A program made the translations under genes and the position numbers. Shown here in pieces: positions 5,607 through 31,119 of a stretch of DNA of 32,000 nt (positions are counted from its first letter, which is position 1; every line of letters starts with the position of its first letter). Below the pieces are notes generated by a model, which was not told where the DNA came from, searched no databases, and saw only the letters and a list, made by a program, of their open reading frames with translations. Source of the stretch: an uncultured Gammaproteobacteria bacterium (GTDB taxonomy: Bacteria > Patescibacteriota > Patescibacteriia > VMEV01 > CAZAJQ01); NCBI GenBank assembly GCA_964485795.1, contig CAZAJQ010000003.1, forward strand, positions 876 to 32,875, read 5' to 3'.

Positions 5607-5652
5607 GGGAATCAGGAAATAGGAATTGGGGAAAAATTTTTTTAAAAAATTT

Positions 5653-5725: not shown

Positions 5726-5790
5726 TCAAGTGATGTAGGTCAAATAGTAACAAAAATAACGGGAAATGTAAAACTTCGTGTTGATTTTTA

Positions 5791-5874
<84 letters not shown>

Positions 5875-5955
5875 AAATAAAAAGAAAGTATTTCAGTTCC
5901 GCCCCTGCCCACTTTTGGTGGGATCTCGGAACATTTTCTAAAACGCAAAATTCAA

Positions 5956-5981
5956 AAATTCCTCAAATTTTTGAGAAATTT
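5956..5981. promoter_or_regulatory. 12-bp-arm inverted repeat in the divergent tRNA/parA intergenic region (candidate operator)
   Basis: AAATTCCTCAAA (5956-5967) and TTTGAGAAATTT (5970-5981) match at 11 of 12 positions across a 2-nt spacer. A TACAAT -10-like hexamer lies at 5991-5996, ~50 nt upstream of the parA ATG. Confidence 0.3.
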
Positions 5982-6045
5982 ACCCTATGATACAATAGAG
6001 AAATGGCGATTGTCAAAGCGCGGAGCATTCCTTATAATGGGTAAT

Positions 6046-6864
6046 ATGGCGCATATCATTTCGATCGTCAATCAAAAGGGCGGAGTCGGAAAAACCACGA
6101 CTTCGGTGAATCTTTCCGCTTCGTTGGCCGAACATTTCGGCAAAAAAGTTCTATTGGTTGACATGGATCCGCAAGCCAATGCCACATCGGGTTTGGGAGT
6201 GGATTATCGGAAGCTTGACGCCGGCATCTACGAAGCCATCATAGGCGACAAGACTTTGCCCGAGATTGTGACGGATTCGTATGTCAAAAACCTCAAAATC
6301 GCGCCGGCTCATGCGGGTTTGACGGGAGCGAGCATCGAGCTGGTGAATGTTGACGAACGGGAATACTGCCTCAAAAAAATTCTTGACACGGTTTCGGATG
6401 CGTACGATTTCATATTCATTGACAATGCCCCTTCACTGGGACTCTTGACCCTCAATGGACTGGTGGCGTCGGATCAGGTGCTTATTCCGGTTCAATCCGA
6501 ATATTATGCGCTTGAAGGACTTGGACAGCTGCTCCATACCGTGCACCTCGTCAAACAAGGATTAAACCCCGATCTTGAGATACTGGGGGTGGTGGTGACC
6601 ATGTTTGACGCTCGCAACAATCTCTCCGGGCAAATTCTTGAAGAGTTGTATAAACATTTTCCGCATCGGATTTTCCGTTCGACGATTCCGAGGAATATTC
6701 GGCTCACCGAGGCTCCCAGTCACGGCAAAAGCGTTTTTCACTATGATGCGCGCTCAAAGGGTGCGACCTCGTATCAACGTTTGGCAAAAGAATTTCTTGG
6801 CATTTATCCTCACATCAACCCTCACACCAACCCTCCTCAGTCAATGCAATCATCTCATGAGTAG
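6046..6864 (+). CDS. parA: ParA/Soj chromosome-partitioning ATPase
   Basis: The deviant Walker A is present (VNQKGGVGKTTTSVNLS), and the MDPQANATSGLG and DxxP regions are typical. Start taken at ATG 6046 (MAHIISIVNQKGG) rather than the track's TTG at 5971. The Pro/His-rich C-terminal tail (YPHINPHTNPPQ) is unusual and is encoded by a 12-nt tandem repeat. Confidence 0.9.
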   Translation: MAHIISIVNQKGGVGKTTTSVNLSASLAEHFGKKVLLVDMDPQANATSGLGVDYRKLDAGIYEAIIGDKTLPEIVTDSYVKNLKIAPAHAGLTGASIELVNVDEREYCLKKILDTVSDAYDFIFIDNAPSLGLLTLNGLVASDQVLIPVQSEYYALEGLGQLLHTVHLVKQGLNPDLEILGVVVTMFDARNNLSGQILEELYKHFPHRIFRSTIPRNIRLTEAPSHGKSVFHYDARSKGATSYQRLAKEFLGIYPHINPHTNPPQSMQSSHE

Positions 6865-6878
6865 GGTTGGTGTGAGGG
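6819..6878 (+). promoter_or_regulatory. Perfect 16-bp stem-loop spanning the parA stop codon and covering the parB Shine-Dalgarno
   Basis: CCCTCACACCAACCCT (6819-6834) is the exact reverse complement of AGGGTTGGTGTGAGGG (6863-6878), with a 28-nt loop. The right arm contains GAGGG (6874-6878), 7 nt upstream of the parB ATG at 6886. The left arm is the second copy of the tandem CCTCACA(T/C)CAAC (6808-6819 and 6820-6831). Confidence 0.5.
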
Positions 6879-6885
6879 TAAACAT

Positions 6886-7749
6886 ATGTCTAAACTTGGA
6901 CTTGGAAAAGGTCTTGACTCGCTTATACCCGTTGAGATGCAAACGTCTTCAGCGGGCGCGGCGGACGGGAAACGCATTTTTGAGATACCCGTCGAAAGGA
7001 TTCATCATGCGCCGGATCAGCCCCGTAAGGTGTTTGATGAAGACGCTTTGACGGAATTGGCCGCGTCGATCCGAGAACATGGGATTTTATTGCCTTTGGT
7101 CGTCAGAAAGGATGGTGATGAATTTGAAATCATCGCCGGGGAGCGGCGTTTCCGCGCGGCGCAAGAAGCCGGACTCAGAGTCGTTCCGGCGATGATACGC
7201 GAAGTTTCGGATCAAGAACAATTTGAACTTGCTTTGATCGAAAATATTCAGAGAGAAGACCTTAATCCCGTCGAAGAAGCCAAGGCGTATTTTCGACTTT
7301 CCGATGAATTCGGCCTGAAACACGATGAAATAGCTCAAAAAGTCGGAAAAAGTCGCTCGGTGATCAGCAATCTCTTGCGACTTTTGCAGCTTTCCGAAGA
7401 CATGCAGCAGGCGCTTATGGATGAGCGCATTTCCATGAGTCATGCGAGAATTTTGGTGGGGATTTCCGAAGAGGAAGCTCGAAAAGATTTTTTTGAAAAA
7501 ATTCTCAATGAAAAACTCTCGGTGGCGAACGCCGAGCAACATGCGAAAATCATCGAGGTGAAACATCATCTCCGTCAGAAACATTTTGATCCCGCGGTGA
7601 TGGAGTATGAAGAACGTTTGAGGGAAGCTCTCGGCACCGGCGTAAAAATAAAAAAATCCGCTTCCGACCGCGGTGTCCTTCTCATCGAATTTTATTCTTT
7701 GGAAGATTTGAAAAATCTTTTGGGAATAATATTGCCGAGCGATCATTGA
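6886..7749 (+). CDS. parB: ParB/Spo0J partition protein
   Basis: N-terminal GLGKGLDSLIP, the ParB box IAGERRFRAA and an HTH region (EIAQKVGKSRSVISNLLRLL) are all present. The gene immediately follows parA. Confidence 0.9.
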   Translation: MSKLGLGKGLDSLIPVEMQTSSAGAADGKRIFEIPVERIHHAPDQPRKVFDEDALTELAASIREHGILLPLVVRKDGDEFEIIAGERRFRAAQEAGLRVVPAMIREVSDQEQFELALIENIQREDLNPVEEAKAYFRLSDEFGLKHDEIAQKVGKSRSVISNLLRLLQLSEDMQQALMDERISMSHARILVGISEEEARKDFFEKILNEKLSVANAEQHAKIIEVKHHLRQKHFDPAVMEYEERLREALGTGVKIKKSASDRGVLLIEFYSLEDLKNLLGIILPSDH

Positions 7750-10610: not shown

Positions 10611-10684
10611 GTGCCCGTAGCTCAACTGGATAGAGCGTATGGCTTCGGACCATAAGGTTGGGGGTTCAAGTCCTCCCGGGCACG
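10611..10684 (+). tRNA. tRNA-Arg (UCG)
   Basis: Manual cloverleaf: GTGCCCG TA GCTC AACTGGATA GAGC G TATGG CTTCGGA CCATA AGGTT GGGGG TTCAAGT CCTCC CGGGCAC G. It is 74 nt and CCA is not encoded. Confidence 0.9.
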
Positions 10685-10695
10685 CTCGATGAAAT

Positions 10696-16682: not shown

Positions 16683-16830
16683 AAAAACATCATTTTTGAG
16701 AGAAAATTAGTATTCTTACTATATCGAAAAAAAATCATGCGCACAACCGATGGGAAAAAAGCGAATATTGCACGAAGCGAAAGCCTCATGATATATTTTG
16801 ATTACTTTTGAAAATTTTCCCACAATCATT

Positions 16831-17388
16831 ATGAATGAAAATAAAATCGGCGCATGGGTCGAGTTTTTTTCGGAATTTTTTAAAGTGGTGATTCTGTCGC
16901 TTGCCATCATCCTGCCGGTGAGATACTTTTTGATTCAGCCTTTTTATGTGAAGGGCGCTTCCATGGAGCCCAATTTTTTTGATCATGAATACCTTGTCAT
17001 CGATGAGATCAGCTATCGTTTTCGGGAAGCTCAGAGAGGGGACACCATCGTTTTTCGGTATCCTCGGGATCCTCATCAATTTTTCATCAAGCGCATCATC
17101 GGACTTCCGGGCGAGAAAGTGGACATTCGCGGCGGAAACGTCTATATTGACGAGGTTCTTTTGGACGAATCCGAATATTTGCCCAAAGGCACGGTAACGC
17201 ATATTGACGCGAGCGTATCGCTTTCGGATGATGAGTTCTTCGTTTTGGGAGACAATCGCGATTTTAGCCTCGATTCACGTCGTTTCGGACCCGTGAAAAA
17301 GGATCTTACGGTGGGGAAAACATGGATTCGCGGTTGGCCGTTCGGGCGTATTTCCGTGATATCAACCCCCGACTATGTGGCGGAATAA
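16831..17388 (+). CDS. lepB: Signal peptidase I
   Basis: S26 motifs are present: GASMEPNF (catalytic Ser), FIKRIIGLPGE (catalytic Lys region) and VLGDNRDFSLDSR. Start at ATG 16831; the track's TTG at 16798 adds 11 aa. Confidence 0.9.
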   Translation: MNENKIGAWVEFFSEFFKVVILSLAIILPVRYFLIQPFYVKGASMEPNFFDHEYLVIDEISYRFREAQRGDTIVFRYPRDPHQFFIKRIIGLPGEKVDIRGGNVYIDEVLLDESEYLPKGTVTHIDASVSLSDDEFFVLGDNRDFSLDSRRFGPVKKDLTVGKTWIRGWPFGRISVISTPDYVAE

Positions 17389-18784: not shown

Positions 18785-18813
18785 TTGACAGTACGCAGCG
18801 GAAAATATATAGT
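18785..18813 (+). promoter_or_regulatory. Sigma70-like promoter TTGACA-17 nt-TATAGT upstream of rpsU
   Basis: Consensus -35 TTGACA lies at 18785-18790 and TATAGT at 18808-18813, with an exact 17-nt spacer. It is ~75 nt upstream of the rpsU start and is followed by a strong SD (GAGGAGG, 18873-18879). Confidence 0.5.
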
Positions 18814-18887
18814 AAATAATACGAAAATCAAAAGACAATTCAACGTATTTCTCATATTAACCATTAATTTTTGAGGAGGTGATATCT

Positions 18888-19118
18888 GTGAATCCTGTCC
18901 ATCGCAAGAAAAATGAATCTTTTGAAAGTTTTTTGAGAAGATTCAATAAAATTATCCTTGAAAGCGGAAGACTTATACAAGCTCGGAGAAACCGTTTCTT
19001 AAAGCAAAGGGTCAATAAGAACAAAGGCAAGAAGCTCGCTTTAAGACGCAAGCAAATATCCGAAAAAATGACGTATCTCGAAAAAGTCGGCAGAATGCCG
19101 GAAGATTTTTTTCGATGA
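18888..19118 (+). CDS. rpsU: 30S ribosomal protein S21
   Basis: Small basic protein with the S21-like core ESFESFLRRFNKIILESGRLIQARRNRFLKQ...RKQ. I prefer the GTG at 18888, 8 nt after the GAGGAGG SD, over the track's GTG at 18879, which overlaps the SD. Confidence 0.8.
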   Translation: MNPVHRKKNESFESFLRRFNKIILESGRLIQARRNRFLKQRVNKNKGKKLALRRKQISEKMTYLEKVGRMPEDFFR

Positions 19119-19187: not shown

Positions 19188-20852
19188 ATGAGACAAAGCA
19201 ATAAACTTCTGTTGATAGGTTGCCTGACGATCATGGCATCCATGATCGCGTTTTCTACGCCTTTCGAAGCATTCGGCCAAGGACTCGACACCGGTATCGC
19301 CCCGCTTTCGCAAACCGGTCTGGGAACCCAAGACATACGACTTACCGTTGCACGCGTGATTCGTATTCTTTTGGGTTTTCTTGGCGTTTTGGCGCTTGGC
19401 ATCGTGCTTTATGGAGGATTTACTTACATGACCGCTGCCGGCAATGCTGAAAAAGTGGAGAAAGCATTGAAAATTCTTCGCAACGCATCCGTCGGACTTC
19501 TCATCATTCTTTCTTCTTACGGCATTGTTTCCTTTGTAATCAATCGTCTCGAAGGCGGAGGCCGCGGTACAGCGGGTATCCCGATTTCCAGCGGTCCGGG
19601 CGGCGGAGGATTCGGAGGAGCATTGGGATCGTTTATCGTGGAGTCGCATTATCCCGTACGCAATGCCGTGAATATTCCGCGGAACACCAAAATCATGGTG
19701 ACGTTTCGTCATCCTATGCTGGTTGATTCGATCATCGATCAGAAAAACACTCCGGACACCATTGACGATACGTTGCGTCCCGAAGCTTTTCGTTTGCGAA
19801 AAACTTCGGATTCGAGCGCCAATGGACCGTTTATCGCCAATATGCGCGCGGCGGTAACCGATGATCTCAAAACGTTTGTTTTCACTCCCATGGATCTTTT
19901 GGGCAATGCAACGGCTCCGACAAATTATACGGCTGAATTGACCGGCAGTATCAAGCGAGCCAATGGCGACAGCGCTTTTGGCGGACTCGGGGGATACAGC
20001 TGGAGCTTTGAAGTGAGCACTTTTGTGGATAATACGCCGCCAAGAGTGGAAAGCGTGATTCCGGTCGCCTCCCAGAGCTATCCTCGGAACACGTTGATAC
20101 AGATCAATTTTTCCGAAAGCATGGATCCGACTACCGTATCCGGGAAAAATTCGCCCGGAGCTTTTCGATTTGATAAAATAACCGTGAAGCAAGGTGTCGG
20201 CGATGTGATCGGTACGTTTACGATCAGCAATCAATATAGGACCGTCGAATTCTTATCCTCGGACAAATGCGGGAAGAACAGCTGTGATGAGGATGTTTTT
20301 TGCTTGCCGGAAAACGCAACCATAGACGCTACCGTCAAAGCAGCATCTTTGACAAACGCCCCGGCTGCGAATTTTCCGTATGACGGAGCGGTGGATGCGG
20401 CCGGCAATTCCCTTGACGGCAATGCCAATCAAATCGCCGAAGGTCAGCCGCAAGACAATTATGCATGGTCGTTTCAGACGACGGGCGAAATAGACCTTGT
20501 CCCGCCTCGCATCCTGTCCACGTCTCCCGCAAGCGGTACCGGAGACGTATTGAGCGGACAAACCCTGTCGGCCACCTTTTCCAAGCTTTTATCGGCCACA
20601 TCGGTGAATACCCAAAGCGTGGCGCTCGACGGCGTGATATACTGGACGACGGTGAACAATGAAATCGCTCAGAATTCTTCGACGATTTTCATTGACCATG
20701 ATCCTTTTGCTCCCAATACCCCGTATTATCCGCAAATCACGTCACTCGTTCGCGACATTTACCAAAATTGCTACTTGCCCTGCGAAGGGCCGGGATGCAA
20801 GGCGGGGGAGAAGTGGAACGGGAAATTCCCCTCGTGCGGATATACTCCCTGA
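19188..20852 (+). CDS. Surface protein with an N-terminal VirB2/TrbC-like pilin hairpin module, a Gly-rich linker and ~3 SbsA/Big_5-like Ig domains
   Basis: A signal peptide is followed by two hydrophobic helices around a short charged loop (VIRILLGFLGVLALGIVLYGGFTYMTAAGNAEKVEKALKILRNASVGLLIILSSYGIVSFVINRL). The linker is GGGRGTAGIPISSGPGGGGFGG. Three segments begin like Big_5 domains (YPVRNAVNIPRNTKIMVTF; PPRVESVIPVASQSYPRNTLIQINFSESMDPTTV; PPRILSTSPASGTGDVLSGQTLSATFS). Confidence 0.8.
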   Translation: MRQSNKLLLIGCLTIMASMIAFSTPFEAFGQGLDTGIAPLSQTGLGTQDIRLTVARVIRILLGFLGVLALGIVLYGGFTYMTAAGNAEKVEKALKILRNASVGLLIILSSYGIVSFVINRLEGGGRGTAGIPISSGPGGGGFGGALGSFIVESHYPVRNAVNIPRNTKIMVTFRHPMLVDSIIDQKNTPDTIDDTLRPEAFRLRKTSDSSANGPFIANMRAAVTDDLKTFVFTPMDLLGNATAPTNYTAELTGSIKRANGDSAFGGLGGYSWSFEVSTFVDNTPPRVESVIPVASQSYPRNTLIQINFSESMDPTTVSGKNSPGAFRFDKITVKQGVGDVIGTFTISNQYRTVEFLSSDKCGKNSCDEDVFCLPENATIDATVKAASLTNAPAANFPYDGAVDAAGNSLDGNANQIAEGQPQDNYAWSFQTTGEIDLVPPRILSTSPASGTGDVLSGQTLSATFSKLLSATSVNTQSVALDGVIYWTTVNNEIAQNSSTIFIDHDPFAPNTPYYPQITSLVRDIYQNCYLPCEGPGCKAGEKWNGKFPSCGYTP

Positions 20853-20880
20853 TGATTTCATGTCAAAAAATTCATGATGC

Positions 20881-21246
20881 ATGGTTATGGTGAAACTTTT
20901 TTTCGCAAGTGTCATTGTTTTTTTGATACTTCCCTTGGGGATATGGGCGCAGCGCGTATCGGATACCAAGGTGATAGAAGGTCAAAATGTCTCTCTGTTT
21001 ACGACGCAGGAAAGTTTTTTGGCCGCCAATGAAGGAACCGTATTTCTCGTCATTCGCCTTTTGAGATTTTTCGCTGGGGTGCTTTTGGTTTTGAGCTTCT
21101 ACAGTTTCCTGAAATATTGTTATCATTGGATGGTGGCAAGCGGAGCCGTGGAAGCCGTGTATGAAGTGTATGACGGATGGGTGTATTCGCTCGTGATTCT
21201 CATCATTTCGATAGCGATATTTGTGGTGACCGGATTTTTTCTTTAA
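20881..21246 (+). CDS. Stand-alone small VirB2/TrbC-like pilin-type membrane protein (121 aa)
   Basis: A signal peptide (LFFASVIVFLILPLGIWAQ) is followed by two long hydrophobic helices separated by a short loop (FLVIRLLRFFAGVLLVLSFYSFL...VASGAVEAVYEVYDGW...VYSLVILIISIAIFVVTGFFL). It is tightly packed between the two fusion genes, with gaps of 28 and 9 nt. Confidence 0.65.
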   Translation: MVMVKLFFASVIVFLILPLGIWAQRVSDTKVIEGQNVSLFTTQESFLAANEGTVFLVIRLLRFFAGVLLVLSFYSFLKYCYHWMVASGAVEAVYEVYDGWVYSLVILIISIAIFVVTGFFL

Positions 21247-21255
21247 GGGATTCGC

Positions 21256-24200
21256 ATGTCCAAAAAAAACACATATACCATTTTTCTGACATTGGCATTG
21301 GCTTTTTTTGCGGGCGCTTTTGCTTTTTCCGCAGGCGCGCAGACGGATTTCACGGGACTTTCGACGCTCGGGCAAAGCGGGCTTTCGGCGCAGGATCCGA
21401 GGGTGACGATCGCCAATATCATACGCATCGCATTGGGTTTTTTGGGTATCATCGCCGTGGTTATCATCCTCTACGCGGGTTTTTTGTATTTGACTTCCGG
21501 AGGCAGTGAAGAAAAGGTGAGTACGGCAAAAAATTTATTGCGCAACGGCATTATCGGATTGGTGATCGTGCTTTCGGCGTTTGGAATCGCTTCATTTGTT
21601 ATTTCCAGACTTTCATCGGCCACGAATACACCGGGAGCCGCTTCGCTCCTGCCTTCGGGAACGGGTGGCGGCGGGGGAGGCGTCGGAGGAGGTGCGGTTC
21701 TTTCGGGCGGGCAATTTGCGGTTGCGGGAGTGAGTCCCGTCGGACAAACTTCGATACGCAATCTCACGGTGAAGGTGACGTTTAGCCGACCCGTTGATAC
21801 CGCGTCCTTGCGAGACAATATCGTGATATCCAAAACATCGGATGGAAGCGCAGTTTCCGGGAATTTTGTCTATGGCCAAACCAAGGTTGAGTTTATTCCC
21901 GGCTCGTTTTGTCCCACACCTGATGAAACGAAGCGTTGTTTTGACGCAAATACCGAGTATGGCGTTGAAGTGAAAAGCGGCTCATCGGGCGTGAAGAGCG
22001 CTACCGGCGATCTTCTTTCCTGCGGACTGGCCGGGGGTTTGTGCAAAACTTTTTTTATCAGCGGCGACGAGATCGATCGAAGCGGCCCAAGCGTGTCGTT
22101 TGTTGCGCCGCAGAACGGCTCATCGGTGGCCGTCAATGATATGGTGCTTTTGCAAGCGCATGCCCGCGATGAAGGCGGTGTCTCTCATGTGGAGTTTTAT
22201 CTTGATGCGGCAGCCGATGAAAGCACGCTTTTGGGTTCCTCGTCTCCTCTCTATTCGACGAGTCCTTCGGAATTTTTGGCATCCATTTCTTGGGATACCA
22301 ATAATATTGCCGCCGGAAAAAATCATACCTTGATTGCCAAAGCCTATGATCTTGATTCCAATGCCTCTCAAACGTCCATTGAAGTGAATTTCAGAGCGGC
22401 GCATTGTTTTGACGGGCAAAAAAACACCGACGAAACCGATATTGATTGCGGCGGCGTCGAATGCGGAAAATGCAATGGCGCGTCGTGCGTGCAGGACAAG
22501 GAATGCAAGAGCAATGCCTGCATCAACGGATTTTGCAGCCGCTTGCCGGTCATCACAAACGTGAACCCCTACAACGGAGCGCCAAACAATCTCATCACCA
22601 TCGATGGAACCAATTTTTCCGAACAAGTGGGACAGGTGACGTTTCTTGGCGAGGTTTCGGATACTTCCGATGATGTGCTCGGTTTGGCTCCCTTGTGCGG
22701 AAACGTGTGGAGCGATTCGGAAATCGTCATCAAGGTACCTTCGCAGGCGCGGTCGGGTCCGATTCAGGTGCGCACGCAATCGGGTTTGCTGGATCATACG
22801 GACAATGATATCGGCATACGGGTGAGTTTTGATATCAACAGTGAAATTCGTCCGGGATTATGTCGTCTGACTCCCGACAGTGGGGAAGTCGGCGGCCTTA
22901 TCATGGTTGCCGGAGAAAATCTTGGAAACCAAGCGCAATCGCTTCTGATCGGGAGCATGAAGGCCTCCGGCATAGGAACATGGACGGAAAATGCGATCAC
23001 GGATGCCGTGATTCCTTCGATATCGGCCGGGAAAGCGCCCGTATTCGTGGAAGTGAACGGGCGGGTTTCAAACAGCGTTTCGCTCGATGTTTCCGAATCG
23101 CGTACGGTTCCAAAGCTGGAGTTTTCCGATCCGATTTTTGGTCCCGTTTCTCAAATGATCACGTTGTACGGGAAAAATTTCGGGCTCACCGCCGGTCAGG
23201 TGCGATTCATCGCGCCGGATGGAAGCGAGCTGATCGCCGACACGTCTTTTCCTCTCCTTTGCGAGAAAAATTTTTGGCATGATGATCTTATCACCGTCAA
23301 AGTTCCGAACACCGAGATCGGAAAATACAAGATCGTCGTGGTCAATGGCCAAAACAAAATCAGCAATTCCATTGATTTTACCGTCAATAATGCCGCAAAA
23401 ACTCCGGGTATCTGCGCGCTTCTGCCGGACAACGGACCGGCCGGCATTGCCGTCACAATCGCCGGTGAAGGATTTGGCGATATTGCAAACCTCGTGCGGT
23501 TTTTCCCAAACTTGGAAAATGGCACCATCACGCAATGGACCGATACGGAGATAAACGTGCAAACGCCTCCGAATGTGGGAAGCGGACCCGTGAAAGTGAT
23601 TTCAAAAAACGGCACCTTGAGCAATGGCGTTACCTTCAAAGTCGGGAAATGTTCCACGGCAAGCTGTCAGGAAGGATATCAATGCTGCGGAAGCGGAGCT
23701 TGTCAGATTGCGGGAAGCTGCGCCATCACCGAGGCGGCCTGTCGCTACACATGGGGTGTGAGTACGGGAAATCTTTCGCTCTTGGATGAGTCAAAATTCT
23801 TGCGGGTGCTTGAAGATGCCTCCTGTACCGTAGTTCCGCAAAGTCCTTCGCCATATAAGGATTCCGAAAACGCTTGCATCAATGCGGATATCGTTGTAAG
23901 GATGAACAAAAATCTTTTGGATCAATCTTTGGATTCCGGCAATGTGAGATTGCAAAAATGCGGTGCAGCGGCGATTTTTGACGCGTCGGATTGCGATGAG
24001 ACGCCTCTCGTATGCGCCATGGAAATCATCAATCACGATACTTCCGAAGAAGGATTTCGCTTGCGCGCAATCGCGCCCTTGGAAGCGAATACTTGGTATC
24101 AGGTGGTTTTGAAAAAATCGTCCGTCATCAATGGCGTGAATCAATTGGACGGTTTTGTGTCCGATGAAGGATACAGCTTCAAAAATGACTATGTTTGGCA

Positions 24201-26391
24201 TTTCAAAACCGACGCATCGGGCGCGGCATGCGATTTCAATAAAGTCCTGGTGATGCCTTCAGACGCCACTTTGCACGTGAAGGAACAAACGCAAGACTAT
24301 ATTGCCGGAGGATTCGCGGCCAATTGCAACCTTGTTTCTCCGGGTACATGCAATGCGAGCTATGCTTGGGCGTGGTCGTCTTCGGATATGTCAAAAGCTA
24401 CGGTTCTGTCGCAGACCGATAAAGCGACGGCAACGGCAAAAGCCGAAACGTTTCCCGATCAGCCCGTCGTCATTTCCGCTACGGAAACCAATCAAAATAT
24501 CAGCGGGCAAGGAAAATTGTTCATCAATTTTACGGATCCGGAAGTGGAAGCCTTTTGGCCGAATTGTTCGCTCGCCTGCATAAATGCCGAAATCGGAGCG
24601 CGATTCAGCATCGCCATGAATCCGGAGACATTGACTTCACAAAATATCCGGCTGTATGCATGCGTCGATCAAAACTGCCTTGCAAATCTGGAGCCGATGG
24701 ATATTGAAAATATCGTGTATGACGACAATCGTCGGGCATTGAGTTTCCTGCCGTCATTGGCTGGATCGTTGCAGCCATCGCATTGGTATCGTGCAGTGAT
24801 CAACGGGGGCGTTTCCGGAGTGAAAAGCGTGAGCAACGGAAAACTTGTCGGGTTGAATTTTCCGCAAGTGAATCCGACCGGATATTCATGGATTTTCGGC
24901 ACGAAGGGCGATGCCAATCTGTGTCAGATCGCATCCGTATCCGTTAGCCCCGAGGAAAAGGACATGTATCTTATCGGGTTGCGGGAAAAATATTACACGT
25001 CGGCGTTCGGATCCCCTGACAGCTGCAACCCGCAAGGACAGCGATTGAACGCGTTTTCTTATGATTGGTCGTGGATGTCGAGCAATGAGGGAGTTGCGAC
25101 CGTTACGAGCGAAGATTTGATATTCTTGGACGGCAAGGAAGATCCTTTGCAATTGGCGCAATCGGTCGGGGTGGGCGCCACACCCGTGCAATCCGGCGGA
25201 GATGTGGTGGGTACGACGACGATCAATGCCAATACGCTCGGAAAGAGCGGACAGGGGACGCTTCGCGTTCATTGCGGATTTCAAAGTGATGCTTCCTGCC
25301 CTGCTCCGGCCACACCCGACACCTATGGCGTCGGTGCGGATACGTGTTGCTATGCTCGACCGGCCGTGACCGAAGTGATTCCCGCGGGCACCAATGTTTG
25401 CCGCAATGCGGTGATGAAGCTGCGATTCAATGGCGATATGGACTATGACAGCGTGCTCGCCAATGTGAAATTGCAGAAGAATTTCGGCGACAATGCTTGT
25501 CCGCAAGTGAGCGATGCAGGATTTTTTGAAAGACTATGGAATTACTTCAGGGGCATGTTTGGAAAAGAAACACAGGCGCAAAGTATTGAAAATTGGTGTG
25601 ACATCGGGCAAACGGTTTTGGCTAGCAAGCAGGGAAACGATTATTTTGCCGAAATATTGATCGATGAAGTCCTGGATTCCAATGCCGTGTATCGAATCCA
25701 TGTCGTGGGCGATCAAAATATTTTTGACAATGTTCAAACCGGCGTGAAAAACGGCATGGGTGTGGTGATGAGAGGCGATTTCACTTCGCTGTTCACCACC
25801 GGTGCTGAAATTTGCGACATCGAAAATGTCACGGTGCGCGTTTTGCCTCAGGACAAGGTGACGCTCGAGGATCTCTTGTCCTGCGCAAGAAACGATTGCG
25901 AGGGCGATCAAAGCGACACCATCCCGAGCAACCAGCACCGCTATATCGCCGAGGCCTATGACAAAAACAATATTCCGGTTCGATCGAGTTTTGAGTGGAG
26001 TCGTTCCGGCGCGAATGTGACGAACCTCCTGAAAACCGATGAAAGGGGCGCATGCGTGAGCGGGGAGAGCGCGAGTCAAACCGGTCAAGCCGTTTGCGTT
26101 TCCGCTTCTCCGACAAACGGCGAAGACAAGATCACGGTAAGGGCGCAATCGCTTTTCAATGCCAGTTCCATGTCTCGGACGTTGAAAACGAAAGTGTTTC
26201 TCTGCGAAAATCCATGGCCGAGTTTGCATGACTATCCGTACACCGATCCGGAGACGAATATGAGTTTCTTTTTTTGCCGAGATGCGGGTCAGCCGGGATT
26301 TGACGATGATTTGCCGGCCTTGAATTTTCCGGTCAAAAACGAAGGCATTGATCCGGGAGTATTTCGAGAATTTTTCTTTTTCGTTCAGTGA
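21256..26391 (+). CDS. Giant (1711 aa) surface protein with an N-terminal pilin-like hairpin module, a poly-Gly linker, Ig-like (Big_5-type) domains, a Cys-rich knot, four IPT/TIG domains and further Ig-like domains
   Basis: The N-terminus is paralogous to that of 19188 (IIRIALGFLGIIAVVIILYAGFLYLTSGGSEEKVSTAKNLLRNGIIGLVIVLSAFGIASFVISRL). The linker is SGTGGGGGGVGGG. The Cys-rich segment is CFDGQKNTDETDIDCGGVECGKCNGASCVQDKECKSNACINGFC. Four IPT-like repeats are present (PVITNVNPYNGAPNNLITIDGTNF...; LCRLTPDSGEVGGLIMVAGENLG...; FSDPIFGPVSQMITLYGKNFG...; ICALLPDNGPAGIAVTIAGEGFG...). An SD-like AAGGGA lies 6 nt upstream of the ATG. Confidence 0.85.
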   Translation: MSKKNTYTIFLTLALAFFAGAFAFSAGAQTDFTGLSTLGQSGLSAQDPRVTIANIIRIALGFLGIIAVVIILYAGFLYLTSGGSEEKVSTAKNLLRNGIIGLVIVLSAFGIASFVISRLSSATNTPGAASLLPSGTGGGGGGVGGGAVLSGGQFAVAGVSPVGQTSIRNLTVKVTFSRPVDTASLRDNIVISKTSDGSAVSGNFVYGQTKVEFIPGSFCPTPDETKRCFDANTEYGVEVKSGSSGVKSATGDLLSCGLAGGLCKTFFISGDEIDRSGPSVSFVAPQNGSSVAVNDMVLLQAHARDEGGVSHVEFYLDAAADESTLLGSSSPLYSTSPSEFLASISWDTNNIAAGKNHTLIAKAYDLDSNASQTSIEVNFRAAHCFDGQKNTDETDIDCGGVECGKCNGASCVQDKECKSNACINGFCSRLPVITNVNPYNGAPNNLITIDGTNFSEQVGQVTFLGEVSDTSDDVLGLAPLCGNVWSDSEIVIKVPSQARSGPIQVRTQSGLLDHTDNDIGIRVSFDINSEIRPGLCRLTPDSGEVGGLIMVAGENLGNQAQSLLIGSMKASGIGTWTENAITDAVIPSISAGKAPVFVEVNGRVSNSVSLDVSESRTVPKLEFSDPIFGPVSQMITLYGKNFGLTAGQVRFIAPDGSELIADTSFPLLCEKNFWHDDLITVKVPNTEIGKYKIVVVNGQNKISNSIDFTVNNAAKTPGICALLPDNGPAGIAVTIAGEGFGDIANLVRFFPNLENGTITQWTDTEINVQTPPNVGSGPVKVISKNGTLSNGVTFKVGKCSTASCQEGYQCCGSGACQIAGSCAITEAACRYTWGVSTGNLSLLDESKFLRVLEDASCTVVPQSPSPYKDSENACINADIVVRMNKNLLDQSLDSGNVRLQKCGAAAIFDASDCDETPLVCAMEIINHDTSEEGFRLRAIAPLEANTWYQVVLKKSSVINGVNQLDGFVSDEGYSFKNDYVWHFKTDASGAACDFNKVLVMPSDATLHVKEQTQDYIAGGFAANCNLVSPGTCNASYAWAWSSSDMSKATVLSQTDKATATAKAETFPDQPVVISATETNQNISGQGKLFINFTDPEVEAFWPNCSLACINAEIGARFSIAMNPETLTSQNIRLYACVDQNCLANLEPMDIENIVYDDNRRALSFLPSLAGSLQPSHWYRAVINGGVSGVKSVSNGKLVGLNFPQVNPTGYSWIFGTKGDANLCQIASVSVSPEEKDMYLIGLREKYYTSAFGSPDSCNPQGQRLNAFSYDWSWMSSNEGVATVTSEDLIFLDGKEDPLQLAQSVGVGATPVQSGGDVVGTTTINANTLGKSGQGTLRVHCGFQSDASCPAPATPDTYGVGADTCCYARPAVTEVIPAGTNVCRNAVMKLRFNGDMDYDSVLANVKLQKNFGDNACPQVSDAGFFERLWNYFRGMFGKETQAQSIENWCDIGQTVLASKQGNDYFAEILIDEVLDSNAVYRIHVVGDQNIFDNVQTGVKNGMGVVMRGDFTSLFTTGAEICDIENVTVRVLPQDKVTLEDLLSCARNDCEGDQSDTIPSNQHRYIAEAYDKNNIPVRSSFEWSRSGANVTNLLKTDERGACVSGESASQTGQAVCVSASPTNGEDKITVRAQSLFNASSMSRTLKTKVFLCENPWPSLHDYPYTDPETNMSFFFCRDAGQPGFDDDLPALNFPVKNEGIDPGVFREFFFFVQ

Positions 26392-26428
26392 AATAGCATT
26401 GTGAAAGTATTGTAAAAAAATCACAAAC

Positions 26429-28933
26429 GTGAGTATGATGCGCGGAATACAAAAATATAGTGCGATTCAAAATTTTTTTTTGCGTTCCCTGATGATGGGT
26501 TGCATGCTTTTCATGGGCTGCATTTTCGCGACTCGAGTTTTTGCGGCGGACGTGATCGGCATACGAGTGATGGACAATCCGGATCGGCTTTCGCCGTTTT
26601 CTTGGTACAATCGTTTCGTTCCCAATCCCGGGGAGCCCGAAGTGCTGTCCGTTGACGGATATCTGGCCTTACGATCCGGAAGAAGCGTGTATGTGTTTGG
26701 CTCGAATCTGGAAAACAATGAACTCAAAGCTCGTGTGTATATCGTCTCTTTTTCGCAAAACGCGAGCGCAAATACCACGAAGATTTTGGATCAGATATTG
26801 CCGCAATTTCAGCTCAATACGAATGTGACGGATGATATTCAAAAAATACAGATACGCATGGATGTGAAAAGAGCCGGAGATGTGAATGATGTGAAGACGT
26901 TGCTTGAGCGCTACAAAAACATCAACGGTACCTATCCGGCTCTTGCCACCGGGAGCTATATAGACGGTCTTACCTTCAGCGCATGGCCCTCATGGCAGTC
27001 CGCTTTGGGAAATGTTTTGCAATCCGCGGTGCCGCAGGATCCGGTGAATAGCTTCGGACAATGTCCGGGGAATTTTGATCAAAACACCTGCTGGAATGAA
27101 AATCAGCAGCAATTCCAATGTCCGGCCGGATCGCATGTTTATGCCTATCAGGTCAGCGAAAACGGGTCTTCATATCGCGTATTGACGAATTTTGACAATT
27201 CATACTGGAAAACCGGTGAATTTGACGCCTTGCTGGCGGATAAATGTTTCAATTTTTCCACGGAATTCGCCAATGATCGAGATGGCGACGGCGTGATTGA
27301 TAATCGCGACAATTGCCCGGATCATGCGAATCCGGATCAAAGCGACCGCGATGGCGACGGACGCGGCGACGTCTGTGAAATATGCTCCGATGACCCGACC
27401 AATGATCGCGACCGCGACGGCATTTGCGGCAATATCGATAATTGTCCCCTCGTGTACAATCCTTTCCAAGAAGATGAAGATCAGAAATCGGGAATCTCAA
27501 TACTGGGTGATGGTGTCGGTGACGCTTGCGATGTGCAGATATGCGGCAATGGAATCAAGGAAGGATATGAAGCGTGCGACGGAGAAAAGGGGATCGGGCC
27601 GCATGAACGATGCGCTTATGGCTGTGTCATCACGCCCTTGACCTATTGCGGCGACGGTTCGGTGCAAAGTCCCAATACCGAAAATAATTTTTCCGAACAA
27701 TGCGATACCTTTGGCGGGAACGGTACGGGTGGAACGCAATATTCCTGTTCATCGCAATGCACATGGACGGGAGGATTCTGCGGAGACGGATTCCGCAATG
27801 GCCCGGAATTCTGCGACGGCGGAGACACACCGCAAAACAGCAGCTGTTTGAACGATTGCAGCGGCTGGGTATGCCGACAGGGGTATTTCCCCTATGAGCG
27901 GGGTTGCTCTCCGGATGGAGATGGAGACAGCGTCCCCGATGCGGTGGATAATTGCACGGATGTCAGCAATGCCGATCAGGTCAATTCCGACCAAGATCAG
28001 TACGGCGATGCTTGTGATTGGTGTCCTTTGGATGCCAGAAACGACGAAGATCTCGATGGCTACTGCGTCGGAAGCCATAATCCGACGTTTTCGGCCTTTC
28101 GTCGTGGCAATGACAATTGTCCGCTCGTTCCAAATCCCGATCAAAGGGATATTGATGCGGATGGGATCGGCGATGCATGCGATCCGGCCACGTGTCGCAA
28201 CGGCATCAAAGAAGGCAATGAAGTCTGCGATATCGGAAAAGGAACCGGGCCCAATGATCGTTGGGGATGTAAATCCGATTGCAGCGGCTGGACCGACGGG
28301 ATCGGGTACTGCGGTGACGGGACTGTTGACGTCGGTTACGAAGGGTGTGAAGCCAATGGAAGCGGAAACGGGCCAAACAATCAATACCTTTGCAAGAGTT
28401 GTCAGTGGGAAGGAGGATACTGCGGCGATTTGATTGTAGATCCGAAAAACGGAGAGCAATGCGAGCAACCGGGAACCGGAAAAAGCGTTACGGATCAGCA
28501 TTTCTGCATCGGCTGTCGTTGGCAGGGCGGATATTGCGGAGACGGTGTTATCAATGGCTCCGAACAATGCGACGCCGGAACGCAAAACGGCATACGTTGC
28601 ACTCCCAATGGCGAGCAAGAATGCAGCTTCTGCGGAATTTCATGCAAACGTGCGATCATGACACCGATCTATGTGCTCAAAGTCGGAAACGCCGGAGACC
28701 CGTGGCGCGGAGGCAAACCGGAATTGTGCGACCTGTATAACGGCGGATCCATCGGCACCGAAAAACCCGTCGGTTCGGTGGAAACGCAGCACACCAACGG
28801 TGAAATTCAATATTATTTCAATCCGCAAGGATGTTTTGCGGACAAATCATGGACCTGCGCCGCCTACTTTGACGGCTGCTCAAGCTACAACACCCTCTTC
28901 TGGGAATTCACCGGCCAATATTTGCAGCAATAG
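26429..28933 (+). CDS. Secreted, very Cys-rich 834-aa protein with eukaryote-like TSP3 repeats and CGDG-type (Myxococcus-style) cysteine-rich repeats, arranged as a duplicated supermodule
   Basis: The signal peptide ends FATRVFA-AD. TSP3 motifs are DNCPDHANPDQSDRDGDGRGDVCE, DNCPLVYNPFQ, DNCTDVSNADQVNSDQDQYGDACD and DNCPLVPNPDQRDIDADGIGDACD. Cys repeats are CGNGIKEGYEACDGEKG, YCGDGSVQ..EQCD, FCGDGFRNGPEFCDGGD, CRNGIKEGNEVCDIGKG, YCGDGTVDVGYEGCE, YCGDLIVDPKNGEQCE and YCGDGVINGSEQCDAG. The start is uncertain (GTG 26429, ATG 26435 or ATG 26438). Confidence 0.85.
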   Translation: MSMMRGIQKYSAIQNFFLRSLMMGCMLFMGCIFATRVFAADVIGIRVMDNPDRLSPFSWYNRFVPNPGEPEVLSVDGYLALRSGRSVYVFGSNLENNELKARVYIVSFSQNASANTTKILDQILPQFQLNTNVTDDIQKIQIRMDVKRAGDVNDVKTLLERYKNINGTYPALATGSYIDGLTFSAWPSWQSALGNVLQSAVPQDPVNSFGQCPGNFDQNTCWNENQQQFQCPAGSHVYAYQVSENGSSYRVLTNFDNSYWKTGEFDALLADKCFNFSTEFANDRDGDGVIDNRDNCPDHANPDQSDRDGDGRGDVCEICSDDPTNDRDRDGICGNIDNCPLVYNPFQEDEDQKSGISILGDGVGDACDVQICGNGIKEGYEACDGEKGIGPHERCAYGCVITPLTYCGDGSVQSPNTENNFSEQCDTFGGNGTGGTQYSCSSQCTWTGGFCGDGFRNGPEFCDGGDTPQNSSCLNDCSGWVCRQGYFPYERGCSPDGDGDSVPDAVDNCTDVSNADQVNSDQDQYGDACDWCPLDARNDEDLDGYCVGSHNPTFSAFRRGNDNCPLVPNPDQRDIDADGIGDACDPATCRNGIKEGNEVCDIGKGTGPNDRWGCKSDCSGWTDGIGYCGDGTVDVGYEGCEANGSGNGPNNQYLCKSCQWEGGYCGDLIVDPKNGEQCEQPGTGKSVTDQHFCIGCRWQGGYCGDGVINGSEQCDAGTQNGIRCTPNGEQECSFCGISCKRAIMTPIYVLKVGNAGDPWRGGKPELCDLYNGGSIGTEKPVGSVETQHTNGEIQYYFNPQGCFADKSWTCAAYFDGCSSYNTLFWEFTGQYLQQ

Positions 28934-28950
28934 TTTTACCCCCAATCACC

Positions 28951-28999
28951 GAGTACTGAGAACTGAGTACTGACTTCCGAGTTCTCAGTACTGATTCTT
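28951..28999. repeat. Seven tandem heptamers (GAGTACT GAGAACT GAGTACT GACTTCC GAGTTCT CAGTACT GATTCTT) forming a 13-bp perfect hairpin; second copy of the heptamer element
   Basis: AGTACTGAGAACT (28952-28964) is the exact reverse complement of AGTTCTCAGTACT (28980-28992). The element starts 18 nt after the stop of the 834-aa gene. It shares the 16-mer CTGAGAACTGAGTACT with the element at 10696-10737. It probably acts as a terminator or attenuator, although no T tract follows. Confidence 0.7.
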
Positions 29000-29054
29000 C
29001 TCCCTCTCATGATATACTGCAAAAAGCATGCATCGGTAAAAAAACAAAAAAAAT

Positions 29055-29630
29055 ATGTTCGATGACCAACAAAAAGAATCCGTCGAGGTTTCCGGAACGC
29101 CTTCCGATAACCGTGGCATGGGTCAGCCCGTTTCAAAGACAGACATCGCGGATATTTTCGCGGATACCGAAAGCGATGTTTTGACTTCAAAGGCTGGCGG
29201 GAAGGAAAATGAATATCGCCTTTCCGCTCCCAAGGATCGCTCATGGATCCTGAGAGCGTTTTTGTTTTTCGTGGTGCTGGGAATTCTCGGAACCGGGGCG
29301 TATTTCGCTTGGAAATGGTGGAAAAGTCTTTCGATACCGACGACACCGTCACAAGTTCAGAATTCAAATGCTCCCACGCAAAGTGCGCCTTTTTTGGACG
29401 CGGATTTGGATGGTCTCTCTGACGATGAAGAGGCGCGTCTTGGGACGAATTCTAAAATGGTTGATACGGATTCGGATGGACTCAGCGATTATGAAGAGGT
29501 CAAGGTTTGGAAAACCGATCCGCTCGATGCGGATACCGACGGAGACACATTTCTTGATGGTCAAGAGGTGAAAAACGGATATGATCCCAAAGGACCGGGT
29601 AAAATCACGGATGTAAAAAAAGTTTTGTAA
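29055..29630 (+). CDS. Single-pass membrane-anchored protein with an extracellular TSP3 repeat block (191 aa)
   Basis: An N-terminal cytoplasmic segment is followed by a TM helix (ILRAFLFFVVLGILGTGAYFAWKWW) and then DADLDGLSDDEE, DTDSDGLSDYEE, DADTDGDTFLDGQE and the closing motif VKNGYDPKGPGKI. The same closing motif occurs in ORF 65-2158 (IKNGYDPLGKGKL). Confidence 0.75.
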   Translation: MFDDQQKESVEVSGTPSDNRGMGQPVSKTDIADIFADTESDVLTSKAGGKENEYRLSAPKDRSWILRAFLFFVVLGILGTGAYFAWKWWKSLSIPTTPSQVQNSNAPTQSAPFLDADLDGLSDDEEARLGTNSKMVDTDSDGLSDYEEVKVWKTDPLDADTDGDTFLDGQEVKNGYDPKGPGKITDVKKVL

Positions 29631-29654
29631 AATATCATCATTGATTCATGCACT

Positions 29655-30629
29655 ATGGAGGACATCATCACTCCCGTCGGAGAAAAAAAAAGCGATGCGC
29701 CCATTCATGGGATGCCCTATGAATTTCAAAAAGAAGCCCCGTCTTCAGGCGGTGGAAATGCTTTCCTCGTGCTTGGTGCGGTTTCCATGGTGGTGGCCAT
29801 TGGGGTGGTGATTGTCATGATCATGACGAATCGATCAGTGGCACCGACGATACCGGATTCAAAGCTTGCCATTCTCGGTGAGCAGAAAACCGCCACATTG
29901 ACACCTCAAACGGCGGTGCCAAATGCCAATGCTTTGAATATCAATCGTCCGGCGGAGAATATCAATGTCAAAGAACCCGAAAATATCAATGTTCCGACCA
30001 CGCCTCCGGTGGCGCCTCCGCTTTTCGGAAGCATTATCGCCAAGGGCAGGGACACAGACAAGGACATGCTCTCGGATGTTGAGGAAGTTTTGTATCGGAC
30101 GTTGAGCAATATTCCCGATTCGGACGGAGACGGGCATACCGATGGCGTGGAGCTCATGAATCTGTATAATCCGGCAGGTCAAGCTCCGGCTGATCTCGCG
30201 ACGTCGGGGTTGGTTCGTGTTTTTGATCAGGTGGGATACGCATACTCATTTTTGTACCCCATCGCATGGGAGCTTGAGCGGGAAGAAGAAAAACAGATCG
30301 TTCGAATGGTGTCATTGACCGGCGAATTTTTTCAAATCGCGGCCTATGAAAATCCAGATAATCTTCCCATCTTGGAGTGGTATTTGAAACAATCTCCCGG
30401 AGTGAAACCCGAGCAGGTGGAAAACGTTACCACCAAAAACGGGTACAAGGGCATCCGCAGCATTGACGGTTTGACGCTTTTCATCGTCAAACCGCTCAAA
30501 GAAGAAATAGCCGCACCTTCGGAAAAAAGAATCATTTACGCCATCACCTACAATCCGGTTGCCGCCACATCGCTTGAGTATTCATCAACCTTCCAGATGT
30601 TTTTGAACAGTTTCGAGATTGTGGAGTGA
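29655..30629 (+). CDS. Single-pass membrane-anchored protein with a short TSP3 block and an uncharacterised ~150-aa C-terminal globular domain (324 aa)
   Basis: The TM helix is AFLVLGAVSMVVAIGVVIVMIM. A Pro/Asn-rich spacer follows, then DTDKDMLSDVEE and DSDGDGHTDGVE. The C-terminal domain begins VRVFDQVGYAYSFLYPIAWELE, a pattern I recall as common in CPR exported proteins of unknown function. Confidence 0.75.
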   Translation: MEDIITPVGEKKSDAPIHGMPYEFQKEAPSSGGGNAFLVLGAVSMVVAIGVVIVMIMTNRSVAPTIPDSKLAILGEQKTATLTPQTAVPNANALNINRPAENINVKEPENINVPTTPPVAPPLFGSIIAKGRDTDKDMLSDVEEVLYRTLSNIPDSDGDGHTDGVELMNLYNPAGQAPADLATSGLVRVFDQVGYAYSFLYPIAWELEREEEKQIVRMVSLTGEFFQIAAYENPDNLPILEWYLKQSPGVKPEQVENVTTKNGYKGIRSIDGLTLFIVKPLKEEIAAPSEKRIIYAITYNPVAATSLEYSSTFQMFLNSFEIVE

Positions 30630-30648: not shown

Positions 30649-31119
30649 ATGTTCGTTCTTGAGTATCGGCAAACATCGGGGAAGCAAAGAATACCGCTTC
30701 ATTTTTTTGAAACGACGATTCGACGAATCGCGAAACGCATGCACATCTCTCGCCCGTATGAAGTATCGGTCGCCTTGGTGGGAGATGCCAAGATGAAGCG
30801 TCTCAATCGAGAATATCGAGGGAGAAACAAAACGACGGATGTGCTCTCGTTTGAAGAAAAAGAGCCTTTTTTTTCTGCGGATTCCCGATCTTTTTTTTTG
30901 GGAGAGGTATATATTTCATATCCGGTTGCAAAAAAGCAGGCCAAGAGACACGGTCGTGAATTGAAAAAAGAGCTGGAGACGCTTTTTATCCACGGCATGC
31001 TTCATCTCCTTGGATTTGATCATCGTAATGAACGTGAAAAACGCATGATGATGAGCAAGGAAAAAGCTTTGAGTACGGACGGGGTTTCCGCTTTGGAAAC
31101 GCATGAAAAAAGGTCATGA
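30649..31119 (+). CDS. ybeY: Endoribonuclease YbeY (rRNA maturation factor)
   Basis: The zinc motif HGMLHLLGFDH is present, along with the upstream DVLSFE and GEVYIS segments typical of YbeY. Start taken at ATG 30649; the track's TTG at 30619 would overlap the preceding gene. Confidence 0.9.
   Translation: MFVLEYRQTSGKQRIPLHFFETTIRRIAKRMHISRPYEVSVALVGDAKMKRLNREYRGRNKTTDVLSFEEKEPFFSADSRSFFLGEVYISYPVAKKQAKRHGRELKKELETLFIHGMLHLLGFDHRNEREKRMMMSKEKALSTDGVSALETHEKRS

Follow-up and report, generated by a model that had tools for sequence, protein, structure and literature searches.

A conserved Patescibacteria locus in which VirB2-like pilin hairpins form the N-termini of giant predicted surface proteins

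The closest described relatives of the proteins examined here are the VirB2-like pilins of the Patescibacteria type IV secretion systems (T4SSs) (PMC12102498; Wang et al. 2023, PMC10633639). A 2025 survey uses the Pfam family PF18895 to call such pilins in 3,035 Patescibacteria genomes (Quinonero-Coronel et al. 2025, PMC12102498). The pilins occur in 1,948 VirB4-positive assemblies, and near virB4 in 1,135; 441 arrays comprise 2 to 11 pilin genes, in tandem or one gene apart, with a mean identity of 25%. The survey found no PrgB-like adhesins. The role of the essential Patescibacteria T4SS has been described as "completely unknown" (PMC11665869). In cultured Paceibacteria, proteins with a T4SS_pilin domain rank with the most strongly expressed uncharacterized extracellular proteins, and PF18895 dominates freshwater-specific structure clusters. 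Here, we analyze a locus at positions 19,188 to 30,629 of a 32,000-nt stretch of contig CAZAJQ010000003.1 (GenBank assembly GCA_964485795.1), referred to below as the window. Its six genes, P1 to P6, had been predicted from sequence to encode an undescribed, exported surface system built around pilin-like anchors.

We find that the locus uses PF18895 modules as the N-terminal roots of giant predicted surface proteins, within a vertically inherited gene neighborhood linked to housekeeping genes. This use is undescribed, whereas the hairpin family is known. The literature examined yielded no account of hairpins fused to giant ectodomains or of a conserved P1–P6 locus, so that the claim of an undescribed system stands for the fused, housekeeping-linked use and falls for the hairpin itself. 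Like the T4SS pilins described in the survey (PMC12102498), P1 and P3 score against PF18895, combine a signal peptide with a two-helix topology, and occur as divergent consecutive copies; spaced by one gene and of low mutual identity, they fall within its definition of a pilin array. The T4SS pilins are treated there as small subunits, often near virB4, whereas the hairpins of P1 and P3 are the N-termini of proteins of 554 and 1,711 aa. The P1–P6 locus also differs from the described T4SS pilin genes in its setting: it lies among housekeeping genes, and in the 80 best related loci, whose gene order was examined by searching ORFs with the window's proteins, no T4SS gene adjoins it.

The two-helix hairpin of P1 (residues 50–121; 19335..19550, plus strand) matches PF18895 over residues 56–117 with 29.2 bits, and that of P3 (residues 51–117; 21406..21606, plus strand) matches over residues 51–115 with 36.2 bits; both scores exceed the gathering threshold of 26.6 bits. 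The pilin-like anchor is thus no unknown module but the VirB2-like pilin of Patescibacteria T4SSs that had already been surveyed. The two hairpins are 45% identical to each other. Pfam searches of the six proteins gave no match to PF04956 (TrbC/VirB2), and a profile of 18 hairpin sequences, run against all Protein Data Bank (PDB) sequences at E ≤ 10, retrieved no solved VirB2 or TraA pilin. Because the PDB profile search gave nothing, the VirB2 relationship of the module rests on the Pfam assignment and on topology. A further likeness is to the pilin-like protein of Mycoplasma integrative and conjugative elements (ICEs; NCBIfam NF045849, Mbov_0395 family), with which the P1 and P3 hairpins align at 34–35 bits over nearly the whole 80-position model, below its cut-off of 40. 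The alignment ties the module to the conjugation systems of monoderms. The Mycoplasma pilins are small and ICE-borne, whereas the P1–P6 locus is chromosomal and vertically inherited and fuses its hairpins to giant ectodomains.

Three further systems invite comparison. Fibrillar and RTX-type giant adhesins follow the same plan as the products of the locus, with an anchor, a flexible linker, an Ig chain, distal Ca-binding or Cys-rich modules, and no enzyme domain. Unlike them, the locus lacks an LPXTG/sortase signal, a type I secretion signal, and an outer-membrane retention module; its anchor is a pilin-type hairpin, and the slow evolution of P1 and P3, at the pace of housekeeping genes, sets them apart from typical adhesins. 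Pam pili share with the locus their restriction to the candidate phyla radiation (CPR), Sec export, Ig folds, disulfides, and membrane-anchored accessory proteins (bioRxiv 10.64898/2026.03.03.709456). They also set a precedent for a CPR filament proposed to assemble without trans-envelope machinery. Pam pili rely on donor-strand exchange with PapD-like chaperones and are found chiefly in Saccharimonadia and Microgenomatia, whereas the locus has a VirB2-like hairpin and is mostly found in ABY1. Pfam detected no chaperone–usher or PapD-like family in the six proteins, and Foldseek with the P1 model returned no chaperone–usher pilins. Fold logic, chaperones, and taxonomic range rule out the Pam pilus as the identity of the locus. 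The Myxococcus proteins MtsC, MtsD, and CglD (NF047638, NF047639, and NF033765), which act in cell–cell cohesion and gliding adhesion, have TSP3 and Cys-rich repeats in common with P4, P5, and P6. Only the repeats are alike, the locus has no MYXO-CTERM signal, and the scores fall far below the NCBIfam cut-offs (P4, 94.6 of 350 bits; P5, 32.9 of 400; P6, 21.1 of 800), which excludes membership.

P1 (554 aa; 19188..20852, plus strand) consists of a signal peptide, the hairpin, a Gly-rich linker, three Big_5 stretches that follow PF18895 in the Pfam assignment, and a Cys-containing tail. Its AlphaFold2 model (mean predicted local distance difference test score, pLDDT, of 73) shows a signal helix, a hairpin formed by residues 50–81 and 87–121, a disordered linker, and three beta-sandwich domains. 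The linker (residues 122–147; 19551..19628, plus strand) is recognizable in the sequence as Gly-rich and flexible, and pLDDT drops below 50 at residues 123–145; a Gly-rich linker follows the hairpin of P3 as well, in line with the Gly-rich linkers first noted in the products. A Foldseek search with the full-length P1 model returned only generic tandem Ig arrays, among them LdtMt2 BIg domains, titin, cadherins, and the Bacillus anthracis Sap S-layer protein (E 1.7e-5).

P2 (121 aa; 20881..21246, plus strand) is an orphan with a signal peptide and two transmembrane (TM) helices. It is the only one of P1, P2, and P3 to have the size of a pilin (~100–200 aa). It matched no Pfam or NCBIfam family, even at E ≤ 10, and a search of 5.8 billion clustered proteins, as far as its word index reaches, returned P2 alone. 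P2 is 19% identical to the P1 module. Against the 18-module profile its loop aligns in register (WMxxxGxxE), although weakly (hhalign E 1.3e-3, probability 19%). Small PF18895-type pilins of 123–129 aa fill the slot between P1 and P3 in two related loci, L048 and L073, whereas in most relatives P1 directly adjoins P3 and the locus has no free pilin. Judging by sequence and position, P2 is most aptly described as a diverged protein, specific to its lineage, that occupies this recurrent slot. Three pilin modules had originally been counted; those of P1 and P3 are secured by their PF18895 scores, and that of P2 is not supported by profile, being plausible through topology, position, and the weak hhalign match.

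Hydropathy was used to assign topology, with signal-peptide cleavage sites inferred. P1, P2, and P3 each have a signal-like N-terminal helix followed by two TM helices; a signal peptide is assigned to P4, and one internal TM helix each to P5 and P6 (residues 64–82 and 38–56, respectively). This agrees with the original prediction of a signal peptide or N-terminal TM anchor in every product and supports their reading as exported proteins. Motif scans of the six proteins found no Walker A, HExxH, or LPXTG motif, Pfam and NCBIfam profile searches found no enzyme family, and NTPase, sortase, and usher motifs were likewise absent from them, again as predicted. No sortase, usher, VirB4, TrsD, VirB3, or VirB6 is encoded among the window genes. 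In the ±10-kb flanks of the 80 related loci, no T4SS family is among the 25 families listed from the 91 largest unassigned ORFs, a listing of recurrent families with singletons set aside; the families that recur there are RelA/SpoT, an EPSP-synthase-family (MurA-like) protein, M17 aminopeptidase, topoisomerase I, enolase, ATP synthase, FtsA, and Mur ligases. The profile searches therefore bear out the absence of assembly machinery from the window and extend it, as regards recurrent families, to the flanks of relatives. The possibility had been raised that the set belongs to a known system with T4SS ATPases just outside the window: the hairpins do belong to a T4SS pilin family and so are not novel, and no such ATPase recurs in the relatives' flanks.

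The largest product, P3 (1,711 aa; 21256..26391, plus strand), comprises a signal peptide, the hairpin, a Gly-rich linker, Big_5 and Big_7 domains, a Cys-rich segment, four TIG domains, and a C-terminal half in which further Big_5 stretches are assigned and otherwise no family. P4 (834 aa; 26429..28933, plus strand) begins with GTG and has its own signal peptide, a conserved N-domain at ~40–290, TSP3 repeats, and CGDG Cys-rich repeats. P4 matches TSP_3 with 52.5 bits in Pfam and is related at the sequence level to COMP and thrombospondin structures; CGDG motifs lie at residues 407, 451, 628, and 703 and a CGNG motif at 372. P3 contains 51 Cys residues and P4 54. Self-comparison of P3 and P4 by blastp (E ≤ 1e-3) revealed no internal repeats. 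Pfam and inspection of the sequence thus agree with the Big_5, TIG, CGDG, and TSP3 modules first assigned to the locus.

P3 and P4 are the proximal and distal fission products of one ancestral giant gene of ~3,300 aa, a conclusion drawn from sequence because P4-like sequence continues the P3 frame in fused orthologs. P3 orthologs range from 1,545 to ~3,490 aa, and at least 36 of the 66 giant orthologs carry P3 and P4-like sequence in one frame, as a single protein of 3,000–3,500 aa. In the 20 fused orthologs where the junction is directly readable, ...YCRDAG..DDLP....EYLF is followed by DAIGIRI.NP..LSP.DWY...VDGY. In the window, P3 ends in ...REFFFFVQ and mature P4 starts with ADVIGIRVMDNPDRLSPFSWY, preceded by a new signal peptide; the fission junction (26392..26545, plus strand) thus takes in the stop codon of P3, 37 nt of spacer, and the P4 signal peptide (residues 1–39). 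The break falls between the conserved segments EYLF and DAIGIRI, and it is the downstream half that acquired a signal peptide of its own. The same split is seen in L008, L009, L063, and L075, and the P4 part is absent from L010 and L017. As to how close the five split lineages are to one another, HisRS (histidyl-tRNA synthetase) and P1 identities conflict. The picture of a unit of six genes does not survive these observations: P3 and P4 derive from one gene, and P2 is an optional orphan.

P5 (191 aa; 29055..29630, plus strand) has a predicted cytoplasmic N-terminus, the TM helix, and TSP3_bac repeats (50.2 bits in Pfam), and ends in NGYDPKGPGK. P6 (324 aa; 29655..30629, plus strand) has the motif IHxMPxxF in its predicted cytoplasmic part, followed by the TM helix (residues 35–58), a spacer, two TSP3 repeats at residues 133–175, and a PsbP/Mog1-like domain at ~185–324. 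Its TSP3 block is shared with P5, and P6 homologs carry PF18884. In the P6 model (mean pLDDT 76.5), the TM helix is followed by a disordered spacer, the TSP3 turns, and, at the C-terminus, an alpha/beta domain predicted with confidence, whose structure matches Mog1p, cyanobacterial PsbP, Tsi3, and SciW. Judged from the model, this domain is a predicted PsbP/Mog1-like binding scaffold and not an enzyme. Conserved N-terminal motifs on the predicted cytoplasmic side, IHxMPxxF in P6 (29655-29760) and MFDD...[ED]DIF in P5 (29055-29243), suggest docking to a cytoplasmic partner.

Relatives of P1 were found in at least 569 genomes in a scan of one genome per species. The 353 scored homologs are 39–53% identical to P1 over the full length, nearly all of them combine PF18895 with Big_5, and they share many invariant residues and motifs, such as SHYP, PRNT, CGxNSCG..V[FY]CLP, NSLDGN, and DIYQNCY. 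Named P1-bearing genomes belong to Falkowbacteria, Uhrbacteria, Komeilibacteria, and the Parcubacteria group and are mostly of the class ABY1, in which the T4SS survey places Falkowbacteria, Uhrbacteria, Komeilibacteria, and Magasanikbacteria under GTDB (PMC12102498). Many records of metagenome-assembled genomes (MAGs) with the locus (L008, L009, L014, and others) bear the title "uncultured Gammaproteobacteria bacterium", and one bears "Candidatus Kapaibacterium"; judging by gene content, these are probably mislabeled submissions.

The gene order Der(−), LytR(−), HisRS(+), ..., P1, P3, [P4], P5, P6, YbeY is near-invariant in the 80 loci, and two further loci agree. Because this order recurs in essentially all of them, the arrangement is far beyond chance, and the prediction of a dedicated neighborhood, syntenic rather than scattered in relatives, is upheld. 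By sequence comparison, the conserved core is P1, the giant P3(/P4), P5, and P6, with P2 and the P4 part optional. P1 is the best-conserved product of the locus. In five of the seven genome pairs compared, it is 38–46% identical, compared with 33–51% for Der, LytR, and HisRS, and P3 is 31–36% identical across up to 98% of its length. That P1 is about as conserved as its housekeeping neighbors argues against a fast-evolving, host-specific adhesin, and the host-contact adhesin initially envisaged is a poor fit. The interval between HisRS and P1 is not constant among relatives. It contains a reverse transcriptase (RVT_1) in L057 (6882-7895, plus strand), a 1,703-aa Calx-beta protein in L044 (4396-9507, plus strand), and proteins with MopE-type metal-binding repeats in L051 (3006-5111) and L068 (5859-7598, plus strand); HflX and YceG are inserted in some others, and no assembly machinery was seen among these inserts. 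The interval seems to be an insertion hotspot for surface-protein genes.

The hairpin extends well beyond this locus. A 97-aa query covering the P3 hairpin retrieved 30,597 representative clusters (E ≤ 1e-3) among 1.84 billion representatives, and architectures were counted in the 147 closest of these. An N-terminal hairpin with a long extension is found in 63 (372–4,531 aa, median 1,079), 38 of which have a linker rich in Gly, Pro, Ser, or Thr; 48 carry 2–13 hairpins in tandem in a single chain, 26 are small stand-alone pilins (≤207 aa), and 10 have a hairpin with a short tail of 60–250 aa. The P3 module is 53–67% identical to the hairpins of relatives of unrelated lengths and 53–61% identical to free pilins of 122–140 aa. 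By these counts, a hairpin joined to a long ectodomain is a common design and not peculiar to the 19188-30629 locus. The tandem proteins, about a third of the closest relatives (P0142–P0287), which we call polypilins, include P0155 (1,775 aa) and P0163 (1,147 aa); no description of this architecture was found in the literature examined. The "VirB2-like pilin" family is thus largely made up of hairpin-anchored giants and tandem-hairpin proteins, and the surveys examined count pilins and fusions together.

Our leading interpretation, in which we place about half of our confidence, is that the locus encodes an autonomous membrane-anchored surface fiber or scaffold of Parcubacteria-type, mostly ABY1-class Patescibacteria, stabilized by Ca2+ and disulfides, with no recognizable enzyme component and apparently without dedicated assembly machinery of its own. 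P1–P4 would pass through Sec and be cleaved by signal peptidase I, whose gene is syntenic 1.8 kb upstream. P1, P3, and, in the source lineage, P2 would be rooted in the cytoplasmic membrane through the VirB2-like hairpin, with both ends facing outward and the basic loop in the cytoplasm, and the hairpins probably pack together. The Gly-rich linker would join the hairpin to an Ig-like chain (Big_5, Big_7, and TIG) that projects through the wall. The distal part, which in most relatives is on the same polypeptide as P3, would be formed by TSP3 Ca2+-binding and disulfide-rich CGDG repeats; in the source genome, the separately secreted P4 would have to re-associate with the C-terminus of P3. CPR genomes are enriched in an MdbA-like oxidoreductase and VKOR, which serve to form disulfides outside the cytoplasm (PMC6744442). 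P5 and P6, as N-in bitopic TSP3 proteins, would be Ca2+-dependent base or tether subunits, whose cytoplasmic N-terminal peptides may contact an intracellular partner. The role of such a structure could be structural, adhesive, or both, as part of an envelope core and not specific to one host strain.

Several points weigh against this interpretation. In the pairs with L063 and L075, P1 is 33–34% identical, compared with 52% for HisRS. The re-association of P3 and P4 and the roles of P5 and P6 are themselves inferred. In Southlakia epibionticum, pilin genes are essential and lie inside the T4SS cluster. The survey's tables list ABY1 genomes as mostly VirB4-positive, including GCA_001818495.1, the source of L065 (PMC12102498). 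Finally, the hairpin is conserved far beyond the need of a passive TM anchor, which implies a specific partner, possibly a T4SS. It is possible, although we think it somewhat unlikely, that the hairpins serve as pilus subunits polymerized by a T4SS and not as plain membrane anchors. The hairpins of P1, P2, and P3 would then be true pilin subunits, extracted and polymerized by a VirB4-type machine encoded elsewhere, and the Ig and TSP3 ectodomains would decorate or tip the pilus, supplying the adhesin reported missing; we regard this alternative as a whole with the same reserve. It is favored by the membership of P1 and P3 in PF18895, by the closeness of free small pilins to the P3 module, and by the canonical small pilins in the P1–P3 slot of L048 and L073. 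In F and T pilus structures, VirB2-type pilins have their N- and C-termini on the outside of the pilus, and the topology of the locus products is compatible with this, as a C-terminal ectodomain or tandem hairpins could fit there. The VirB4-positive ABY1 genomes and the lack of PrgB-like adhesins in the survey point the same way, as do the six ABY1 genomes examined in its tables, in which every VirB2-like call, often in runs of two or three genes, is marked "VirB4 proximity: No"; remote pilin genes thus seem the norm in ABY1, unlike the Microgenomatia and Paceibacteria PF18895 arrays shown there, which are VirB4-proximal (PMC12102498). On the other hand, T4SS genes never adjoin the locus in the 80 loci, the free pilin is missing from the locus in most relatives, the profile of the module retrieves none of the solved VirB2 or TraA pilins, and, on a rough estimate, a homopolymer of subunits of 400–3,300 aa each is sterically implausible. 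The same tables also contain one VirB4-negative Uhrbacteria genome with two adjacent VirB2-like genes, a case that is subject to MAG incompleteness and whose survey calls are not matched to P1 or P3. A broader version of this idea, which we consider distinctly speculative, holds that PF18895 hairpins may serve the whole phylum as a display handle: an essential, relaxase-less T4SS would chiefly pull hairpins out and polymerize them into pili that are covalently decorated with giant Ig/TSP3 ectodomains, in the case of single-hairpin fusions, or built of polypilins, and the locus would be a core, vertically inherited ABY1 cargo. If true, it would explain why separate T4SS adhesins were not found.

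P1 and the giant protein might instead form or anchor a paracrystalline, S-layer-like lattice, with the hairpins as membrane pegs and with Ca2+/TSP3 contacts. S-layers were reportedly seen by Luef et al. in 2015 on groundwater CPR cells imaged by cryo-transmission electron microscopy. The Big_5 domains, the Ca-binding repeats in three proteins, and the housekeeping-level conservation of a locus near-universal in its clade agree with such a layer, and Sap is found among the generic Ig matches of P1. The Sap match, however, is no better than those to titin or cadherins, and Pfam found neither an SLH domain nor another known anchoring or lattice domain in the six proteins. S-layer proteins usually diverge fast, which P1 does not, and a multidomain chain of 3,300 aa is more fiber-like than a lattice protomer; we judge a lattice improbable. 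Least probable, in our estimate, is that the locus is no functional unit, its six genes being neighbors by vertical inheritance and their products independent surface proteins. Patescibacterial genomes are compact, and this one is largely co-directional here; promoter and terminator scans were uninformative, and P2 and the P4 part are present in some loci and absent from others. Independence is nonetheless hard to reconcile with a P1–P3–P5–P6 order that is kept even though housekeeping proteins are just 33–52% identical, with P3 and P4 being a single gene in most relatives, and with modules that recur between products (the hairpin in P1, P3, and P2; TSP3 in P4, P5, and P6).

The coordinates of the six consecutive plus-strand genes and their intergenic gaps (28, 9, 37, 121, and 24 nt from P1 through P6) were reproduced exactly. 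Independent short-read assemblies from three other runs repeat the P1–P6 order, including the separate P3 and P4, and the first gene of the window recurs unchanged in GCA_016204025. Public contigs that match the window exactly stop inside it or shortly past its end and contribute no gene but FtsA. Upstream lie genes for Der, a LytR-CpsA-Psr protein, type I signal peptidase (Peptidase_S26, E 3.8e-41; 16798-17388, plus strand), and HisRS, and a weak S21-like ORF; the signal peptidase is the sole processing enzyme near the locus. The order LytR, signal peptidase I, HisRS, (rpsU), P1 is conserved, as in L004 and L006. Both predicted boundaries are present. The upstream one is rpsU (18879..19118, plus strand), a gene for an S21-like small ribosomal protein that stops 69 nt before P1 and matches Ribosomal_S21 below the cut-off (21.4 vs 27 bits). 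The downstream one, conserved among relatives, is YbeY (30649..31119, plus strand), with FtsA next. The best-scoring promoter-like site, TTGACA-17-TATAGT (18785..18813, plus strand), lies 5′ of rpsU and the locus and matches the consensus at 11 of 12 positions; on that consensus match it is a possible shared promoter of rpsU and the locus. The promoter and terminator scan gave no more sites than expected from shuffled sequence and no informative internal terminator. Rfam and tRNA scans found no RNA family and no tRNA inside the locus, and antisense ORFs within it had no family match and were regarded as shadows of the genes on the sense strand.

The other genes of the window are housekeeping genes, encoding an M16 peptidase, a GT4 glycosyltransferase, ParA, ParB, RelA/SpoT, and ThrRS (threonyl-tRNA synthetase). 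There are four tRNA genes, a cluster of Met(CAT), Met(CAT), and Leu(CAA) at 5412-5875 (minus strand) and tRNA-Arg(TCG) at 10611-10685 (plus strand); ParA and ParB (5971-7749) follow the cluster. Cumulative GC skew climbs monotonically across the window, and a replication origin is not evident from it. A 697-aa secreted protein with TSP3_bac repeats and long acidic low-complexity stretches is encoded at 65-2158 (plus strand), and a second TSP3_bac protein lies just 5′ of it on a public contig (L091 212-904); TSP3 Ca-binding surface proteins thus occur in the source genome beyond the locus as well.

Patescibacteria possibly account for much of bacterial diversity, and their surface structures are almost uncharacterized. 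Conserved across hundreds of species, the P1–P6 locus is a concrete candidate for a principal surface structure of one large class. Whether its hairpins are anchors or pilus subunits, either answer informs how these cells build their envelope and make contact with other cells, and the locus offers a testable handle on T4SS and envelope function in Patescibacteria.

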